Made by a program: the position numbers and the translations under genes
Shown here: positions 15,174 to 60,805 of the stretch, one piece after another
Numbering within the stretch: the first letter of the stretch is position 1
How the letters are laid out: each line of letters begins with the position of its first letter
The notes under the pieces: generated by a model
What the model saw: the letters and a program-made list of their open reading frames with translations, nothing else
Databases searched by the model: none
What the model was told of the DNA's origin: nothing
Assembly: GCA_943357895.1 (NCBI GenBank)
Contig: CALRGO010000003.1
Location: forward strand, 15,389-79,388
Source: Parcubacteria group bacterium
GTDB taxonomy: Bacteria > Patescibacteriota > Minisyncoccia > UBA6257 > UBA11618
DNA length: 64,000 nucleotides
Direction of reading: 5' to 3'

Positions 15174-15258
15174 GGAAGGGTCGCATAGAGGCCTAGTGCA
15201 CCATCTTGGAAAGGTGGCATACCGAAAGGTATCGAGAGTTCGAATCTCTCCCCTTCCG
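15174..15258 (+). tRNA. tRNA-Ser (anticodon GGA), class II with long variable arm
   Basis: Hand-folded. Perfect 7-bp acceptor stem GGAAGGG/CCCTTCC and a 3-bp D stem. Anticodon loop TTGGAAA (anticodon GGA). Variable-arm hairpin ATACC-GAAA-GGTAT. T arm GAGAG-TTCGAAT-CTCTC with discriminator G. No CCA is encoded. Confidence 0.85.
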
Positions 15259-15266
15259 CAAATAAT

Positions 15267-15299
15267 AAAACCCCTAGGAAAAGGGGTTTTATTATTTTT
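15267..15299 (+). terminator. Intrinsic terminator after tRNA-Ser
   Basis: cccct-aggaaa-agggg followed by TTTTATTATTTTT. Confidence 0.6.
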
Positions 15300-15372
15300 G
15301 GAGGAGAGATTCGAAATCGAGACTCGAAGAGCGAGACGACGTTGGAATTATCCCGCAGCGAAGCGAGGTTTG

Positions 15373-15449
15373 ATTTAAAAACTATCCCGAATGAAATGAG
15401 GTTTAAGTTTTTCAATCACGTCAGAAGGAAGTGAAACGATGATGACGAT
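15373..15449 (+). repeat. Conserved intergenic element, copy 1 (core GATTTAAAA..ATCCCGA..GAGGTTTAA..TTTTCAAT..GGAAG.GAA.CGA.GATGACGA); candidate sRNA or repeat
   Basis: ~75% identical over 77-78 nt to 32853-32930 in the same orientation. Bracketed by the tRNA terminator upstream and a plus-oriented terminator at 15639-15668. Confidence 0.5.
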
Positions 15450-15638
15450 TCAGCTTCGTTTACTCTCCCCTTCCGCTCATTTTTAATTACCCCCCGACCA
15501 GCAAGCTGGTTGGAATCAGCTAATTGAAAAAAATAAGCACGCATGATAACTTGTAATCAGTACCCATAAATATGGGGGGTGAGACCAGGAAGATTAGCTC
15601 CCCACACGTGCCACTACGTGATAGATCTTCCACCAACC

Positions 15639-15668
15639 CCGCCGAATTAATCGGCGGGTCTTTTTTTA
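15639..15668 (+). terminator. Plus-strand intrinsic terminator (cccgccga-attaa-tcggcggg + TCTTTTTTT)
   Basis: The U-tract is on the plus side only. The reverse complement lacks a T-run, so it does not look like the htpX terminator. Confidence 0.6.
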
Positions 15669-32753: not shown

Positions 32754-32852
32754 ATATTTTTACAATTGAAAAAATCAAAATTAACAGCGACCCTTTTGTT
32801 ATTTTACTACCTATGCTCGCATGAGGCGAACCGTATTCGCTATTGCAACGCT

Positions 32853-32930
32853 GATTTAAAAGGTATCCCGAGTAGGACGAGGTTTAAACTTTTCAATACA
32901 TGTGAGGGGGAAGCGAAGCGACGATGACGA
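32853..32930 (+). repeat. Conserved intergenic element, copy 2 (paralog of 15373-15449)
   Basis: Same orientation. Followed by a plus-strand terminator-like hairpin ccccgcg-ttaaaat-gcggggagg-TTTTT at ~32975-33001. Confidence 0.5.
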
Positions 32931-33001
32931 ACTATTGTCTTGCCAGCACATCTCTGGAGCAAAAACCCCCTAATTCCCCGCGTTAAAATGCGGGGAGGTT
33001 T

Positions 33002-33457
33002 TTACGGTATCAGGGGAACTGACTCCATTGGAACAGGCGGATACAAGTCCTCATCCACCGCGCGCCTAAAGCAGAAAGAGCCCGCGGGATGATCCCAATT
33101 ATCCTGCTTATATACGGGGTCGCCCGCGCCACGATTTTCCATGCTGAAATCCGCACACAGGGAAAATACTGGCCCGTCGGAAGGAGCCTCTATCGCGTAA
33201 CCGTATTCCACACCCGTCGCGGGATCCGTCGGCACCCTAAAACCCCGCACGTCGTCACGTAACGCTTCGAGCCCAGATGGCAACTCGTATTTCTTTTGCC
33301 AATAATTGATTACCTCCCACTGAATTGTCTGCAAATCACTAACGCGCCGCTCGTCGAACCGGCGCACGCGCTCGGTGGTGGGCGAACCAACAACGAAAAA
33401 GCCAGCGACGACCGAAACCACCACTACCCCTATTACGATACTCGGAAGAATTTTCAT
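33002..33457 (-). CDS. Membrane-anchored hypothetical protein
   Basis: N-terminal TM helix. No motif recognised. Confidence 0.5.
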   Translation of the reverse strand: MKILPSIVIGVVVVSVVAGFFVVGSPTTERVRRFDERRVSDLQTIQWEVINYWQKKYELPSGLEALRDDVRGFRVPTDPATGVEYGYAIEAPSDGPVFSLCADFSMENRGAGDPVYKQDNWDHPAGSFCFRRAVDEDLYPPVPMESVPLIP

Positions 33458-34061: not shown

Positions 34062-34748
34062 ATGAGCAGTGGACGCCTTATCACCATCGAAGGCATCGAC
34101 GGTGCCGGAAAAGGAACTCAAGTAGCATTACTTGTCACCCGCCTCGAATTAGAAGGGCATGCCATCGCCCTATTCGATTTTCCCCAATACAAAAAACCCC
34201 CGGCATGGTATGTTGAGCAATATCTAAATGGGAAATACGGTTCACTCGAAACCATTGGACCACATCTCGGATCGTTCTTCTTTATGCTCGATCGCCATGC
34301 GGCGGCAGTGAATATTCGCGATGCTCTCCATTGCGGGAAAATGGTGGTATGTAATCGATATGTGGGCTCTAATTTAGCGCATCAAGGCGGAAAAATCGCC
34401 GACAGCGGCAAACGCCACGCGTTCTTTAAATGGAATGACATAGTGGAATACCAAACGCATGGTATTCCCGTGCCCGACATCAATCCCGTGCTCTTTATCC
34501 CACCCGAAGCGAGCCGTACACTCGTCCTTCAAAAAGCCCGGCGAGCGCACCTCGAAGGGAAGGATCTTGACTTGCACGAAGCCGACATCAACCATCTGCG
34601 ACAGACATACACAGTCTATCGCGAACTCGTGGATATGTTTCCCGATAAATACGTTCCGGTGGAATGTTTCGAAGATGGACGGCATTTATCACCCCAAGAA
34701 ATCCACGAAAAGATTTGGGCAATCGTCGCCCCTGTCGTCGGGTATTGA
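34062..34748 (+). CDS. tmk: Thymidylate kinase
   Basis: IEGIDGAGKGTQ P-loop, a Tmk-like LID region, and GGAG SD. Confidence 0.85.
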   Translation: MSSGRLITIEGIDGAGKGTQVALLVTRLELEGHAIALFDFPQYKKPPAWYVEQYLNGKYGSLETIGPHLGSFFFMLDRHAAAVNIRDALHCGKMVVCNRYVGSNLAHQGGKIADSGKRHAFFKWNDIVEYQTHGIPVPDINPVLFIPPEASRTLVLQKARRAHLEGKDLDLHEADINHLRQTYTVYRELVDMFPDKYVPVECFEDGRHLSPQEIHEKIWAIVAPVVGY

Positions 34749-34899
34749 CGCCCTATCCGCAAAAAAAACCCTGAACGCTACACGAGCGCGTTCGGGGCTT
34801 TCTCTTGCCAAAAAATACCTTTCGCCGTATGCTGACCTCGGTTTTGTTGACAACTTTACGGCACTTTTGCCATCCGTCCCAACCCGAGGAGATAGACCA

Positions 34900-36618
34900 A
34901 TGTTTCAGCTTCCCGAAGATCGCAAGCAGGATCTGCTTGCCCACGCCGACGAATATATCGGCGCGAAAGTCAACTACAGCTTCACTCCTAAAGAAATGTA
35001 CGTATTGGAGCAATTTTTTACTAATTGCGACCAAAAGATTTTCTTCGTCCACGGACTGCCAGCAAATGTACTCGCCACGTTTGCCGCGATGTATTCGCGC
35101 ATGGCGAACCCCCGCGGCATCCGCGGGGTATTTGTTGACACCTACCTCATCTCGCTCATCGCTGGCACGTTACCGGAAGTCGAAACGGAGTATGGCGGCA
35201 AGATCGCTGATTTTCTTAAGGCGAGCGATATCACGTCGCTCGACGGCTTTTACGCCCACAGCGAAGCTACGCGCGCTTGTTACGAAAATTTTACGAGAAG
35301 CATCGTGATGGATCCCGACTACATCCAATCCATCACGAACACGAAGCGGACGAAAGGATTCTTAAGCACGTGGCTTGACGCCTACGGGCACAATTCCATC
35401 GCTCGCGTGGCATCCGTCACGATCTGCTTCGAAGGCATCTCTATCCTCGCGGCAAAGTCGCTTGAATGGTCACGCCCCGGAGCCGGATTCATAGAACGGT
35501 CCACGCGGTATGTCAACATGACAGATCCGCAATGGTACCCAATTGAAAACGAAATCAGAATTTTGGGAGATAGTCTGTTTTTTGCAGAAAGAACGATTAA
35601 ACGGGCCTTTGAGTTATACGCGGAGCTTCTTGGTGCTGATGTGGACGGTGCGTTTCCGCGCTATTTGTTCGACAAGTACGGCAATGATTACTCTAGCAAC
35701 GAAGCCGCGCTCAAGCTCGGCGTCATGGGAGAATCATTCGACGTGCTCGGTAACTTTCTACCAGCCGCCACGCTCACTTCGGTGTGCGCGACGGTCAGCG
35801 GCGAAGCCCTGCCAAGCGTCTTGCGGCACTTACTGCTCGACGGCACGCCCGAAAACAACGCTATCGTGCAAATGATCCTGAAAGAAGCTGCAAAAATCGG
35901 CGCGAACCAATTCTGTCGGCATTACGAGCCGACAATATCGGAACATGCCGGCTGGAGCTACCTTTCGACGGCGGCGTTCAAAAACTGCCGTCTGCCAATT
36001 TATTTAGAAGGAGATTACCCGACGCGGAACTTACTCGATATGTTCTGTATGAAAGAAGGATTCGCAAACGTTGCGAGCATGGAGGAAGTGCATACGCTCC
36101 TCTACGGTGCGGGGCGTGCGGACCACGACAAGCTACCAAACGAATTCGAGGCAGTCGGCGTCCGCTTGAAAGGCATGATGTCGTTCCGTGGATGGCGCGA
36201 TTTACACCGGCAAGGGTTTTCGACCCACCGGCGCACGCTACTCACGCCTGAACTCGGCTTTTATGTTTACGACAAGCCGCACCCCGTAGAATTAGATATC
36301 GGCTTCGCCGTTATCGAAGAATTCGCGCGAGAAGAATGGCAACGCCTGCTGAATACGCCCGTATTCATGCGGCAGTACATGCTACCGATCGGCTTCAACG
36401 TAGGTTTCACCTTTGGGTGCAACGCGCGCCAAGCCGAATTCTGTAATTGGCAAAGGACGGACTACAGCGTAAACCACGAAGTGCGTCAAGTGTTCCTCGC
36501 TATGGAAAATGCTCTTCGCGGGCGCTACAAATGGTGGGCGCAATTCTCACGGGCGGATATGACGCCAAAATACGTCTTCGCCCGCGGCAAACCGAAACGT
36601 GAGCTGATTGCCGAATAA
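34900..36618 (+). CDS. Large (572 aa) protein with two divergent Thy1/ThyX-like segments; putative flavin-dependent thymidylate synthase-like enzyme
   Basis: GAGGAG SD 9 nt before ATG 34900. The track ORF starting at 34459 overlaps tmk and is rejected. Segment 1 reads CFEGISILAAKSLEWSRPGAGFIERSTRYV...DPQWYPIENEIR, resembling the ThyX motifs FEIEGVS...LVRHRHFSFSQQSQRYV...HAQWEIR. Segment 2 has LHRQGFS...NARQAEF...HEVRQ. It sits between tmk and dcd. Confidence 0.45.
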   Translation: MFQLPEDRKQDLLAHADEYIGAKVNYSFTPKEMYVLEQFFTNCDQKIFFVHGLPANVLATFAAMYSRMANPRGIRGVFVDTYLISLIAGTLPEVETEYGGKIADFLKASDITSLDGFYAHSEATRACYENFTRSIVMDPDYIQSITNTKRTKGFLSTWLDAYGHNSIARVASVTICFEGISILAAKSLEWSRPGAGFIERSTRYVNMTDPQWYPIENEIRILGDSLFFAERTIKRAFELYAELLGADVDGAFPRYLFDKYGNDYSSNEAALKLGVMGESFDVLGNFLPAATLTSVCATVSGEALPSVLRHLLLDGTPENNAIVQMILKEAAKIGANQFCRHYEPTISEHAGWSYLSTAAFKNCRLPIYLEGDYPTRNLLDMFCMKEGFANVASMEEVHTLLYGAGRADHDKLPNEFEAVGVRLKGMMSFRGWRDLHRQGFSTHRRTLLTPELGFYVYDKPHPVELDIGFAVIEEFAREEWQRLLNTPVFMRQYMLPIGFNVGFTFGCNARQAEFCNWQRTDYSVNHEVRQVFLAMENALRGRYKWWAQFSRADMTPKYVFARGKPKRELIAE

Positions 36619-38693: not shown

Positions 38694-38752
38694 AAAATAA
38701 TATCACAAAATCAAAACAGTATAATAAAACTAAACTCACGTCTTATCCCCAC

Positions 38753-38788
38753 ATTATCGTCATATGCCGGTCGGCATATGACGATAAT
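38753..38788. repeat. 36-nt perfect palindrome P1: ATTATCGTCATATGCCGGTCGGCATATGACGATAAT
   Basis: Exact reverse-complement symmetry. 6 nt after the typA stop, and not followed by a T-run. Confidence 0.9.
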
Positions 38789-38793
38789 AGACC

Positions 38794-40587
38794 CTAGACT
38801 TTACGGCCGGCGCCCTTTAACTCACGCTTCCTGATGCGGATTGATTTTGGGGTCACCTCTACAAGCTCGTCGTCGCCGATGTATTCAAGTGACTGCTCCA
38901 AGGACATTACGCGCGGCGGAATTAAGTCGTCACTTACGGCTTCCGTCTTTGCACGGAAGTTATTTAACTGCTTTTCGCGGCAGACGTTCACAGATAAATC
39001 ATTATCCTTAGCGTGTTCGCCGCATACCTGCCCTGCGTAGACTTCTACCCCCGGCCCGATAAAGAGCACGCCGCGGTCGCGCGAGTTAAGTAAGCCATAG
39101 GCCGTCGTCGAGCCCGATTCATGTACTACGAGCGAACCATGCTTACCCGCCTCTATGGTTTCCCACTTAGGGAAGTAGCCGGCGAAGAGCGAGTTGATAA
39201 TCCCCTTACCTTTCGTGTCTATTATAAATTCGTTACGGAAGCCGATGAGTCCGCGCGTCGGCACGAAAAAGTGAAAATTAACGATGCCATTATCTACGCT
39301 CATATTGCGCATTTCGCCCTTACGGTTCGAAAGGCGTTCGATAACAATACCCGAATACGTTTCGGGTGCCTCGATCCACACGTCTTCCGCCGGCTCACAC
39401 ATCTTTCCGTCTTCAATCTTCATAATAACCTCGGGGCGCGAAACCTGCAGCTCAAAGCCGTCGCGACGCATTTTTTCTATCAAAATTGCTAAATGTAGTT
39501 CGCCGCGGCCGGAAACCACAAACTGATCCGGCGTGTCGCCCTCGTCAACGCGGAGCGCTACGTCACCATCGAGTTCGCGCATTAGGCGCTCACTGATGTT
39601 GCGCGACGTGCAGTACTGGCCTTCGCGGCCGGCAAACGGCGAATCGTTAACGCTGAAAATCATCTTCACCGTCGGCTTTTCTATGGTGATTGCCGGCAAC
39701 GCTTCAGGATTATCAATATCCGTCACCGTATCACCGATCGTAATGTCGGGAATACCCGAAAGCACGGCTATGTCGCCTGCCACGACCTCCGTGGCATCTA
39801 TCTTACCAAGACCAGAAAACATCATAAGCGAAGTGATCTTCGACTTACGTACCGTGCCGTCGTTTGCGACGATTGCCACCGGCTGAGTTGCCATAATTTT
39901 ACCGCGCGTCACGCGGCCAATACCGATCTTACCCTTATAATTATCGTACGATAAAGAAACTACCATCATCTGGAGCGGACCTTCCGACTGCGCCTTAGGG
40001 GCAGGAATATATTTCATGACCGCGTCGAAAAGCGGTACAAAGTCCGTCATTTTTTCCATCTCTGGCTCAAGGCCCGCCTTACCTAAACGGCCTGCAGCAT
40101 ATACTACGGGGAAATCGAGCTGCTCGTTTGTAGCGCCTAATTCTATAAAAAGCTCTAAAACCTTATCTAACGTGTAGTCGATGCGGGCGTTAACTTTATC
40201 TATTTTATTTACGACGACGATAATTTTATGTCCGATAGCGAGCGCCTTCTTAAGCACGAAGCGCGTTTGTGGCATCGGGCCTTCCTGCGCATCAACTAAT
40301 AAGAGCGATCCGTCTGCCATGTTCAAAACGCGCTCTACCTCGCCGCCGAAGTCGGCGTGGCCGGGAGTATCGATAATATTAATTTTCGCGTCTTTATACT
40401 GCACAGCCGCATTTTTAGAGAAAATGGTAATACCACGCTCACGCTCGATGTCGTTAGAATCCATTATCATTTCCACACCCGCCGACTTCCCTAAATCCGT
40501 ATTCGTCTGCTTTAAAAGACCGTCGACAAGAGTGGTCTTGCCGTGGTCGACGTGGGCGATAATAGCGATATTCCGTATGTCTGCCAT
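38794..40587 (-). CDS. typA: Translational GTPase TypA/BipA
   Basis: 597 aa, [10 protein letters not shown]-loop, EF-G-like domain organisation with the BipA C-terminal domain. Confidence 0.9.
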
Positions 40588-60194: not shown

Positions 60195-60230
60195 ATTATC
60201 GTTATATGCCGACCGGCATATAACGATAAT
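60195..60230. repeat. 36-nt perfect palindrome P2: ATTATCGTTATATGCCGACCGGCATATAACGATAAT
   Basis: Differs from P1 only at symmetric positions (C/T plus partner; centre GA-CC vs GG-TC). 36 nt after the dsbB-like stop. Confidence 0.9.
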
Positions 60231-60265
60231 GAATTATTTTATCACTCTTATGCATCCCGTATTTA

Positions 60266-60805
60266 TTAGTTTTTATGCCTATGCACTCTGCCCGCAGCGA
60301 GGGTCGCCGCGATAAGCGCGAATGCGGTTAAAGACATTACGGGGATCGTCACGTAGCCAAACATGATAAAAAATATGCGAGCGCATGATTCACCCGAGGT
60401 GGGGCAGGGAATGAATGTGTTACCACCCAACTGGACGAACCAGTTGTACGCGGCGACACCAGAACCGATTATTGCGGCGAGAAGCGCAACGCCCTCGGTG
60501 CGCCGACTACCCCCGAGCCATGCGTAAAGTAAAATAAACGGCAATGGAAACATGAATACGCGTTGAACTACGCACAAAGAACATGGCGGAAAACCAGCGA
60601 CTTCGGAATAAAAAAGACTCGCGAGCACGGCGAAGAGGGATATAAAAAAGGCAACGGCGGGGGCATGCATACGGAGTATCCGGTGTACTATCCACTCACC
60701 TTTTTTATGAAATATAACGGACAAAGCAATTACAATAATCCCCGCTTCGGCAACTATTGTAAGCGCCGAAAGCGCATATGTAAGAAATTCGACGGACGGT
60801 GTCAT
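60266..60805 (-). CDS. Disulfide bond formation protein B family (DsbB/BdbC-like)
   Basis: Four TM helices with Cys pairs in the predicted outer loops (PPCSLC, IPCPTSGESC). Confidence 0.7.
   Translation of the reverse strand: MTPSVEFLTYALSALTIVAEAGIIVIALSVIFHKKGEWIVHRILRMHAPAVAFFISLFAVLASLFYSEVAGFPPCSLCVVQRVFMFPLPFILLYAWLGGSRRTEGVALLAAIIGSGVAAYNWFVQLGGNTFIPCPTSGESCARIFFIMFGYVTIPVMSLTAFALIAATLAAGRVHRHKN

Follow-up and report, generated by a model that had tools for sequence, protein, structure and literature searches.

Two gene-free intervals in a 64,000-nucleotide (nt) stretch of DNA from a Parcubacteria group bacterium (GenBank assembly GCA_943357895.1, contig CALRGO010000003.1, positions 15,389 to 79,388; hereafter the window, with its first letter as position 1) harbor closely similar segments of about 78 nt, and the question raised by this locus is whether these represent paralogous small RNA (sRNA) genes, copies of a dispersed regulatory or repeat element, or something of both. 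A sequence-only reading of the window had put forward the first two options; both survive, and the evidence favors a blend. We read the segments as the core of a cassette, prone to insertion, for a small structured RNA that would be made from the plus strand and belong to a family undescribed so far, and give this reading about an even chance of being right. The repeat-element option is supported because one copy is absent at the orthologous site in three relatives and further copies lie in unrelated contexts elsewhere, the RNA option because hairpins covary, free-standing copies keep their terminators by compensatory change and the core is better conserved than its flanks.

The window belongs to a metagenome-assembled genome (MAG) of Paceibacteria-like Patescibacteria, covers 64 kb of the source genome and carries DUF5671 and housekeeping genes. 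Near-identical contigs are found in ENA samples ERZ272802xx and in GCA_943355175.1, and homologs of the substrate-binding protein encoded beside the first copy bear the source labels Pacebacteria, Paceibacterota or Parcubacteria. The search of other genomes that the sequence-only reading had proposed returned further homologs in related genomes, here given L numbers. Exact-pattern scans yielded L022, an ortholog of copy 1 located after tRNA-Ser in a MAG, and L024 and L025, homologs of copy 2 from one Joint Genome Institute (JGI) metagenome that reside in unrelated gene contexts; L026, L027, L029, L030 and L031 were found via synteny of the substrate-binding protein, and L024c, a diverged copy in L024 beside tRNA-Gly, by profile searches. 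The element family is confined to one Paceibacteria clade. To our knowledge, Patescibacteria, which are ultrasmall bacteria, have very small genomes in which few mobile elements have been recognised and hardly any regulatory RNAs described, and literature searches for RNAs or MITEs (miniature transposable elements with inverted repeats) described in Patescibacteria gave nothing relevant. The family combines strong sequence constraint, covarying hairpins, demonstrated entry into new sites and repeated entanglement with tRNA ends, and provides a handle on the birth and spread of non-coding RNA genes in reduced genomes and on why insertions are drawn to tRNA genes. Should the core bind a protein, an unrecognised RNA-protein system might come to light in Patescibacteria; if the element is merely selfish DNA, it would still be a new type of small element lacking inverted repeats.

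The conserved core and the insertion of copy 2

When 15301-15668 was compared with the window by blastn, the sole non-self match paired 15371-15448 (copy 1) with 32852-32930 (copy 2), which are 78.5% identical across 79 columns that include one gap (E=3.2e-12). Aligned by Smith-Waterman, the pair scored 71, compared with a maximum of 27 and a mean of 15.2 (standard deviation 2.2) for 1002 other 248-nt tiles on both strands. The similarity reported earlier for 15373-15449 and 32853-32930 is thus real, with coordinates 1-2 nt off and an identity, about 75%, that was slightly low; both copies indeed lie on the plus strand. Searches with nhmmer and a covariance model found two full copies and one half-unit in the window and no more. 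The internal duplication described for copy 1 was likewise borne out: ATCCCG-N9-GAGGTTT at 15350-15370 is followed by ATCCCG-N8-GAGGTTT at 15384-15404.

Copy 2 is situated between a minus-strand gene for a 151-amino-acid (aa) protein and doxX. Three related genomes (L033-L035, L036 and L037) retain the order DUF5671 - 151-aa protein - DoxX - HhH-GPD. Their 151-aa proteins are 77%, 83% and 60% identical, respectively, to that of the window, and the spacer between the 151-aa gene and doxX measures 51-57 nt in these genomes, compared with 248 nt for the species of the window. At the empty sites the sequence is ...(C/T/G)TAC/TGTATCA..., with a single TTAC, TCTAC or TGTAC at the three, and the filled site reads ...TTTTAC/TACCTATGC...GGGGAGGTTT/TTAC/GGTATCA... 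(slashes mark junctions). Since the flanking genes are conserved, the relatives have only the short spacer and TTAC stands at both junctions, this comparison shows copy 2 as gained by insertion between the 151-aa gene and doxX. All three type-2 copies, i.e., copy 2, L024 and L025, have TTAC on their left side, while the right end is followed by TTAC in L025 and by TTAT in L024. A target duplication of TTAC would look the same as a TTAC-ending element inserted after a TTAC target. In L024 the element directly follows the T-run of an upstream terminator; in L038, the nearest relative available, the T-run of that terminator ends with TTTTAT, the element is absent and the downstream gene is different, which is only suggestive.

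These properties invite comparison with known small elements. BOX, RUP, ERIC and Correia elements are other small dispersed repeats of bacteria. The element resembles prokaryotic MITEs (reviewed in PMC10969869) in being small, non-coding, intergenic and hairpin-forming, in its presence or absence between relatives and in the short repeat at both junctions; with TTAC on either side and three empty sites, copy 2 displays both an apparent target-site duplication and the presence/absence pattern by which MITEs are recognised. MITEs can also carry terminators and yield small RNAs, as exemplified by the QMITEs of Coxiella that seed sRNAs (PMC5896051), and the element described here carries a terminator and probably gives rise to an sRNA. 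Unlike MITEs, however, it has a low copy number and a conserved interior rather than conserved termini, some copies are framed by tRNA ends, and terminal inverted repeats are lacking: a repeat search of the window reported none for copy 2, and by inspection TACCTATGCTCGCAT at the left end and the right end in its reverse complement, AAACCTCCCCGCATT, have only ACCT...CGCAT in common, which is not reproduced in L024 or L025.

Could the element therefore be selfish at the DNA level, a non-autonomous derivative of an IS200/IS605-like or other transposon whose hairpins fold in single-stranded DNA, whose transposase is encoded elsewhere and which has no RNA function? Besides the insertion with its empty sites, the position 3' of TTAC in all three type-2 copies, the absence of inverted repeats and a structured strand with non-canonical pairs agree with this view. 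On the left, the foot of the subterminal hairpin is 18-19 nt away from TTAC, and on the right it is 10 nt away from the end; IS608, which inserts 3' of TTAC, has its hairpins 19 nt and 10 nt from the ends (PMC3201880). The H1 and module stems of the core (see below) are devoid of G-U pairs, so that single-stranded DNA or the opposite strand could form them, too. Mini-hairpins with GNA triloops, e.g., GCGAAGC, are very stable in DNA. Against these likenesses, the hairpin on the left is unrelated to the one on the right, and both differ between copies (left, GCGAA/TTCGC in the window and GGGC/GCCC in L024 and L025; right, CCCCGC, CCCCATGC or CCGTGCC), whereas the ends of IS200/IS605 elements carry similar hairpins for a single TnpA. 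The tetranucleotides 5' of the hairpin feet (ATGA or ATAA on the left; AATT, GATG or GATT on the right) lack the initial AA needed to pair with TTAC, and the right end also abuts TTAC, so that a 4-bp duplication is equally possible. The interior is conserved while the ends drift, the reverse of what selfish elements show, copy number is low with copies in one genome only about 80% identical, and neither TnpA nor any other Y1 (HUH) domain was detected in the window by Pfam scans of 50 open reading frames (ORFs). We consider a purely selfish DNA element unlikely, if conceivable. All in all, the element would work like a small non-autonomous insertion element equipped with a terminator and probably an sRNA, yet it fails defining features of both MITEs and the IS200/IS605 group.

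Architecture, covariation and selection

In the alignment, all members contain a hairpin, H1, with an A/U-rich stem of 7-13 pairs around UAUCCCG-N8/9-GAGGUU that features a pyrimidine internal loop, CC/GG pairs, GA...GA flanks and a mini-stem. It is followed by a purine-rich module, (C/A)GUCNGARGGAA-(mini-hairpin)-GAYGANGACGA. There are two mini-hairpins, one made by the N8/9 stretch of H1 and one in the middle of the module; both have a stem of 2 bp and a loop of 3-4 nt, with (G/A)A as the 5' flank and GA as the 3' flank. A single 95-nt unit is carried by L029 and L024c; in the long forms L022 and L030 a second H1 is nested in the first and the module occurs twice. Judged by these relatives, copy 1 of the window is a long form after a deletion between two GAYGACG repeats; because about 113 nt of L022 (less in L030) are missing, its module 2 directly abuts the 3' tail. 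Taken together, the elements of the family are about 95-330 nt in size, non-coding and rich in hairpins. The core travels in three kinds of vehicle, namely the 194-nt TTAC-flanked unit (copy 2, L024, L025), a tRNA-Ser-derived frame (copy 1, L022, L029, L030) and a fusion with a tRNA-Gly 5' half (L024c). As the 4.6-kb contig L024 carries a type-2 copy in addition to L024c, at least two kinds of copy reside in one organism.

A 17-pair structure placed on the family alignment (A5) yielded standard pairs in 87.4% of the cells, compared with 27-48% when the 3' partners were slid by 1-3 columns. Compensatory changes on both sides were seen for 9 of the 17 pairs, and neither the observed pairing nor the covariation score was reached by any of 500 shuffles. 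The H1 stem alternates between GAUUUAAAAAC/GUUUUUCAAUC and GGAAUUAU/AUAAUUCC without a change in register, its mini-stems are AU/AU, GU/AC or GC/GC, with AC/GU one register off in L029, and those of the module are GU/AC, GC/GC or AC/GU, both mini-stems being Watson-Crick paired throughout. By inspection, the helix upstream of the module keeps its complementarity as well (GACGU/ACGUC, CGACG/CGUCG, GCAUG/CAUGU). The opinion that the two copies share no consistent fold therefore holds for their differing 3' tails and not for the core hairpin, which is common to all members.

We infer the plus strand to be the RNA strand. It is favored because the GA...GA flanks and the purine-rich module would turn into pyrimidine mismatches on the other strand. 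In the same direction point the terminator of L025, which precedes a gene on the same strand and serves no convergent gene, and L024c, where the plus strand is fused to a tRNA promoter and 5' half. Copy 2, L024 and L025 each have their own bidirectional terminator, so that all type-2 copies possess one, and it is maintained by compensatory change.

Conservation is unevenly distributed. When copy 2 is compared with L024 and L025, 76-77 of 80 core positions agree (95-96%), but agreement falls to 3-4 of 11 positions for the left hairpin and to 9-11 of 18-20 for the terminator stem-loop; with identities of 27-55%, the peripheral hairpins of the type-2 copies nevertheless still form in each of them. 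Over 15301-15447, copy 1 agrees with L022 at about 97% of the positions. The protein gene next to it shows 70% DNA identity, and compensatory changes have rebuilt the tRNA terminator between copy 1 and its neighbor. Recent spread alone would preserve all parts of the element to the same degree, and this pattern argues for selection acting on the core.

Under the cassette reading, the element would be transcribed and end at its own terminator or, in the case of copy 1, at a closing stem followed by a U-run, and selection would maintain the core as a platform to which a protein or an RNA binds. An enzyme encoded outside the element and the window would make new copies, with the tRNA-derived ends and TTAC junctions marking sites of recombination or insertion.

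Several observations weigh against this reading, among them the lack of G-U pairs mentioned above. The covariation stems from about four independent variants, and some of the pair differences may go back to one ancient duplication instead of repeated compensation. Folding stability is unremarkable for the core alone (z from -0.3 to +1.8) and for the whole of copy 1 (z about 0). A scan complemented by eye found no sigma-70-type promoter inside the core on either strand or common to the copies; what inspection brought up were -10-like A/T stretches, i.e., TGATAT(A/T) in L026, L027 and L031 and, upstream of copy 1, TATTAT at 15290-15295, which lies in a terminator arm and may be -10-like. The clean comparison of filled and empty sites is a single one, Pfam scans of the 50 ORFs revealed no integrase, transposase or reverse transcriptase in the window besides its housekeeping genes, and the family is rare, 21-22-nt exact patterns having matched one genome among 185,579 species representatives and two JGI metagenome contigs.

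Alternatively, the copies may be vertically inherited paralogous genes for trans-acting sRNAs with a conserved seed, variable tails and no mobility. OmrA/B and Qrr are paralogous sRNAs that combine an invariant core with variable tails, and tRNA-like parts are known from the tRNA-like domain of transfer-messenger RNA (tmRNA) and from YrlA. As in such families, there are several copies in gene-free intervals, a strongly conserved core ahead of variable 3' tails and same-strand terminators kept by compensatory changes, and the ends of copy 1 can pair in a helix that resembles a tRNA acceptor/T-stem. What sets the element apart is that copies arise by insertion: copy 2 is missing at the orthologous site of three relatives with otherwise identical gene order, near-identical cores occupy unrelated contexts and partial tRNA gene duplications flank two kinds of copies. 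Moreover, the scan of the copies found no promoter, and Rfam and ARAGORN returned no match. Immobile sRNA paralogs thus appear improbable to us.

The Rfam comparison that the sequence-only reading had recommended gave no family over either core at E<=10 (Rfam 15) and none at the gathering threshold, and seven related loci gave no match at E<=1 beyond tRNAs and long-hairpin artefacts. A scan of the whole window at gathering thresholds had produced no hits, which is weak evidence, because a filter effect of the scan hid even tRNA-Ser, scored at 48.3 bits (threshold 29) when scanned regionally. Permissive Rfam scans ruled out signal recognition particle (SRP) RNA, 6S RNA, RNase P RNA, tmRNA, ribozymes and riboswitches, and ARAGORN found no tmRNA. 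The earlier decision not to call ffs stands, given that no Rfam SRP model matches, and for the same reason the loose resemblance to SRP domain IV that had been pointed out is left without support. Duplex energies of the core with tRNA-Ser were no different from those of shuffles, which disposes of an antisense role toward this tRNA, and readings as kink-turn, hammerhead, box C/D, DnaA box or IHF site were discarded by eye on account of misfitting spacing or order of the defining elements. With regard to an origin from phages, plasmids or viruses, IMG/VR yielded one chance match in pattern scans, and blastn of copy 2 to plasmids and of copy 1 to phages found nothing.

TTATCCACA is a DnaA box. 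Blocks rich in A/T, a partial palindrome (ATTTAAAA...TTTTCAAT) and the sequence TTATCCC(G/A)C look like sites bound by proteins and could indicate a double-stranded DNA regulatory site such as an operator, a promoter or a DnaA-box-like array, just as the Shine-Dalgarno-like GGAAG before ATG in both copies could indicate a small protein-coding gene. However, no plus-strand gene starts downstream of copy 1 or copy 2, and compensatory stem changes are unexpected for duplex binding sites. A single frame stays open through the core of both copies (DLKTIPNEMRFK... vs. DLKVIPSRTRFK...), but in type 2 it has no start codon, the differences are not biased toward third positions, and the ORFs farther downstream are disrupted by indels. 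The duplicated half-units cannot share one frame because their spacing differs (N8 vs. N9). In agreement with the earlier observation that the short ORFs after ATGAC are not conserved as peptides, the peptides are unrelated and a 1-nt indel between the copy-2 homologs shifts the frame. Either of these two explanations is very improbable.

The frame at tRNA-Ser

Copy 1 resides in a frame built from pieces of the preceding tRNA-Ser gene, designated frame X (Table 1). The exact 14-mer CTCTCCCCTTCCGC from the tRNA 3' end occurs only twice in the window, at 15246-15259 in the tRNA itself and at 15463-15476, where it closes the frame, as it does in L022, L029, L030, L027 and L031. On the left, the frame starts with an inverted copy of the T-loop, T-stem and acceptor 3' strand, which is present in L022, L029 and L031 and in variant form in L030 and L027. 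The terminator hairpin between tRNA and frame is the tip of a palindrome with arms of about 35 bp, which are the tRNA-Ser 3' end and its inverted copy; this region causes long-hairpin "miRNA" artefact matches in Rfam, and the terminator stem differs from that of L022 by compensatory changes. Read on the plus strand, frame X amounts to a tRNA-Ser acceptor/T-arm minihelix, GGAG-GAGAG-AUUCGAA ... CUCUC-CCCUUCC-G, with a cargo of 130-300 nt in its T loop. The small hairpin behind the inverted copy recurs as GCUC-GAA-GAGC in L022 and L030 and as GCCC-GAA-GGGC in L029, where U-A is replaced by C-G in a compensatory manner. Half-unit "a" further downstream was recognised by a partial nhmmer match (15334-15375, E=2.6e-5) and may be compared with the single-unit forms in L029 and L024c.

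Frame X follows tRNA-Ser in at least five other genomes (L022, L029, L030, L027, L031), with a truncated version in L026; the more distant relative L032 has no frame X. The cargo varies by genome, being an M unit in some and unrelated hairpins in L026 and L027, whose neighboring proteins are 86% and 80% identical to that of the window. Their cargo (L026 1590-1720 and L027 3085-3215, minus strands) comprises an A/U-stemmed hairpin, GUUUUUAAG-AAGGCG-UUU-CGCCGAC-UAUAAAAAC, with GA-type flanks as well as more hairpins; the L027 region folds with z=-2.1, and the 3' end in L026 is cut by the neighboring gene. In L031 (GCA_039739235.1) the region 2590-2960 on the minus strand contains a duplicate of the tRNA-Ser terminator AAAATATCGCGCAGCTGATATTTTTTT about 100 nt past the tRNA-linked element (AAAAATATCGCACAGCCGATATTTTTTT).

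A second link to tRNA is provided by L024c (L024 2514-2748, minus strand; JGI Ga0209542_10061094), in which an M unit is fused to 29 nt copied from the tRNA-Gly(GCC) 5' half. This copy has 27 of 29 matches, 25 of them as an exact block, comes with its own TATAAT and lies upstream of an intact tRNA-Gly. A second promoter-like site, TTGATT-16-TACTAT, precedes the intact gene.

Genomic islands and cis-mobilisable elements are reported to be integrated by tyrosine integrases at sublocations within tRNA genes. On this precedent, the copies could be scars of integrase-mediated integration into tRNA genes, consisting of the attP arms, with arm-type sites such as TATCCCG-N8-GAGGTTT, of a larger integrative element that has lost its genes, perhaps mobilisable in trans like a cis-mobilizable element (CIME). 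Direct repeats of tRNA sequence bracket the element (14 nt of tRNA-Ser, up to 20 nt in L027; exactly 25 nt of tRNA-Gly, 27/29 with flanks), and the tRNA is regenerated with a new terminator in the 3' case or a new promoter in the 5' case, each supplied by the tRNA-proximal part as is usual for integrative elements. The terminator behind the distal repeat of L029 resembles the native one of the tRNA in L027, and the same tRNA-Ser site holds different cargo in different genomes. Unlike such islands, the segments are just 130-330 nt long, have no ORF and possess an extra inverted tRNA copy; the tRNA 5' half is duplicated in one case, and the site of copy 2 is no tRNA gene. A search of the flanks detected no integrase in or near any copy, and no phage, plasmid or viral contig was found with the sequence. 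Hairpin covariation and purine asymmetry would not be expected for double-stranded arm sites. Finally, the inverted copy in L031 has changed along with the T-arm of its own tRNA (GAGGG/CCCTC), while the direct copy keeps CTCTC; such covariation suggests long co-residence and not a scar. Integration scars, too, thus seem improbable.

A quite different proposal, which we rate as rather far-fetched, would make the family a bacterial counterpart of short interspersed nuclear elements (SINEs), i.e., a small structured RNA with borrowed tRNA parts that is copied to new sites via an RNA or single-strand intermediate. The borrowed parts would be the tRNA-Ser acceptor/T-arm minihelix and the tRNA-Gly 5' half, and the core would serve as a handle for the copying enzyme. 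The 194-nt insertion starts at a fixed nucleotide and stops inside the U-tract of its own terminator, where a transcript would end, and the short TTAC repeat lies near T-runs; it is this position of the ends that makes the proposal compatible with the data.

Table 1. Positions of the tRNA-Ser-linked copy 1 and of the inserted copy 2 in the window.
Feature	Position	Strand	Basis or remark
tRNA-Ser(GGA)	15174-15259	+	ARAGORN; Rfam tRNA model; anchor of copy 1
Direct repeat 1, last 14 nt of tRNA-Ser, CTCTCCCCTTCCGC	15246-15259	+	
A/T-flanked terminator hairpin, AAAACCCCT-AGGAAA-AGGGGTTTT	15261-15299		Inverted self-match of 15236-15318
Inverted copy of tRNA-Ser T-loop, T-stem and acceptor 3' strand, GGAGGAGAGATTCGAA, 3 nt deleted	15300-15315	+	Left end of frame X
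Small hairpin CTCG-AAGAG-CGAG	15323-15335	+	Sequence comparison
Half-unit "a", TTGGAATTATCCCG-CAGCGAAGC-GAGGTTT	15342-15371	+	5' part of outer unit; H1 nested inside
Copy 1 H1, A/U-rich stem GAUUUAAAAAC/GUUUUUCAAUC around UAUCCCGA-(AU-GAA-AU)-GAGGUUUAA	15371-15418	+	
Copy 1 purine-rich module 2, CGUCAGAAGGAA-(GU-GAA-AC)-GAUGAUGACGA	15419-15448	+	
T-arm-like hairpin GACGA-UUCAGCU-UCGUU	15444-15460	+	In L022 and L029; not in L030 and L024c
Direct repeat 2 of tRNA 3' end (15463-15476), then CTCATTTTT	15463-15485	+	Right end and closing-stem 3' strand of frame X
Ends of frame X closing helix, 5'-GGAGGAGAG...CUCUCCCCUUCCG-3'			
TTAC, left junction of copy 2	32804-32807	+	Filled vs. empty sites
Complete type-2 element, 194 nt	32808-33001	+	Filled vs. 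empty site comparison
Copy 2 conserved 5' segment with GCAUG	32808-32826	+	Can pair with CAUGU 32899-32903
Copy 2 variable hairpin	32826-32840	+	
Copy 2 H1	32852-32898	+	
Copy 2 module 2	32899-32930	+	
Copy 2 hairpin after module 2	32920-32939	+	
Copy 2 second variable hairpin	32942-32960	+	
Copy 2 A-tract, terminator hairpin and T-run	32966-33001	+	Terminator scan
TTAC, right junction of copy 2	33002-33005	+	Its TTA is the TAA stop of the minus-strand 151-aa gene
Putative circle or excision junction, copy 2 ends joined across one TTAC			Would read ...GGAGGTTT(TTAC)TACCTATGC...

Neighboring unit and other observations

The interval of 370 nt that had been taken as one terminator-bracketed candidate gene is indeed bordered by tRNA-Ser and by a plus-oriented terminator at 15638-15668, the T-run of which, as stated before, is on the plus strand only. 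It is not one gene, however, as copy 1 ends at about 15485 and 15525-15668 looks like a separate promoter-plus-terminator unit. This unit had escaped the sequence-only reading, as had the repeats of the tRNA 3' end, the insertion of copy 2 and the larger modular unit. On the plus strand it displays TTGAAA (15525-15530), a 16-nt spacer and TG-n-TAACTT (15547-15552), followed by about 110 nt with three hairpins that end in the plus-only terminator. Its minimum free energy is -38 kcal/mol, vs. -26.2 +/- 3.2 kcal/mol for shuffles (z=-3.7, reached by 0 of 200); Rfam gave no match, and the copies compared were all from the same species.

A 37-nt palindrome, CATTATCGTCATATGCCGGTCGGCATATGACGATAAT, occurs twice in the window (38752-38788 and 60195-60231, 95% match), each time just downstream of a minus-strand gene, encoding a BipA-like GTPase (38794-40587) and a DsbB-like protein (60266-60805), respectively. 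These paralogous, terminator-like sequences possibly represent another small repeat family. Lastly, a thymidylate kinase ORF (34062-34748, plus strand) overlaps a plus-strand ORF of 719 aa (34459-36618) in which the ThyX (Thy1) domain spans only residues 269-478. The Thy1 protein is called with at least 572 residues in related contigs, and the ThyX-containing protein of the window is unusually long.

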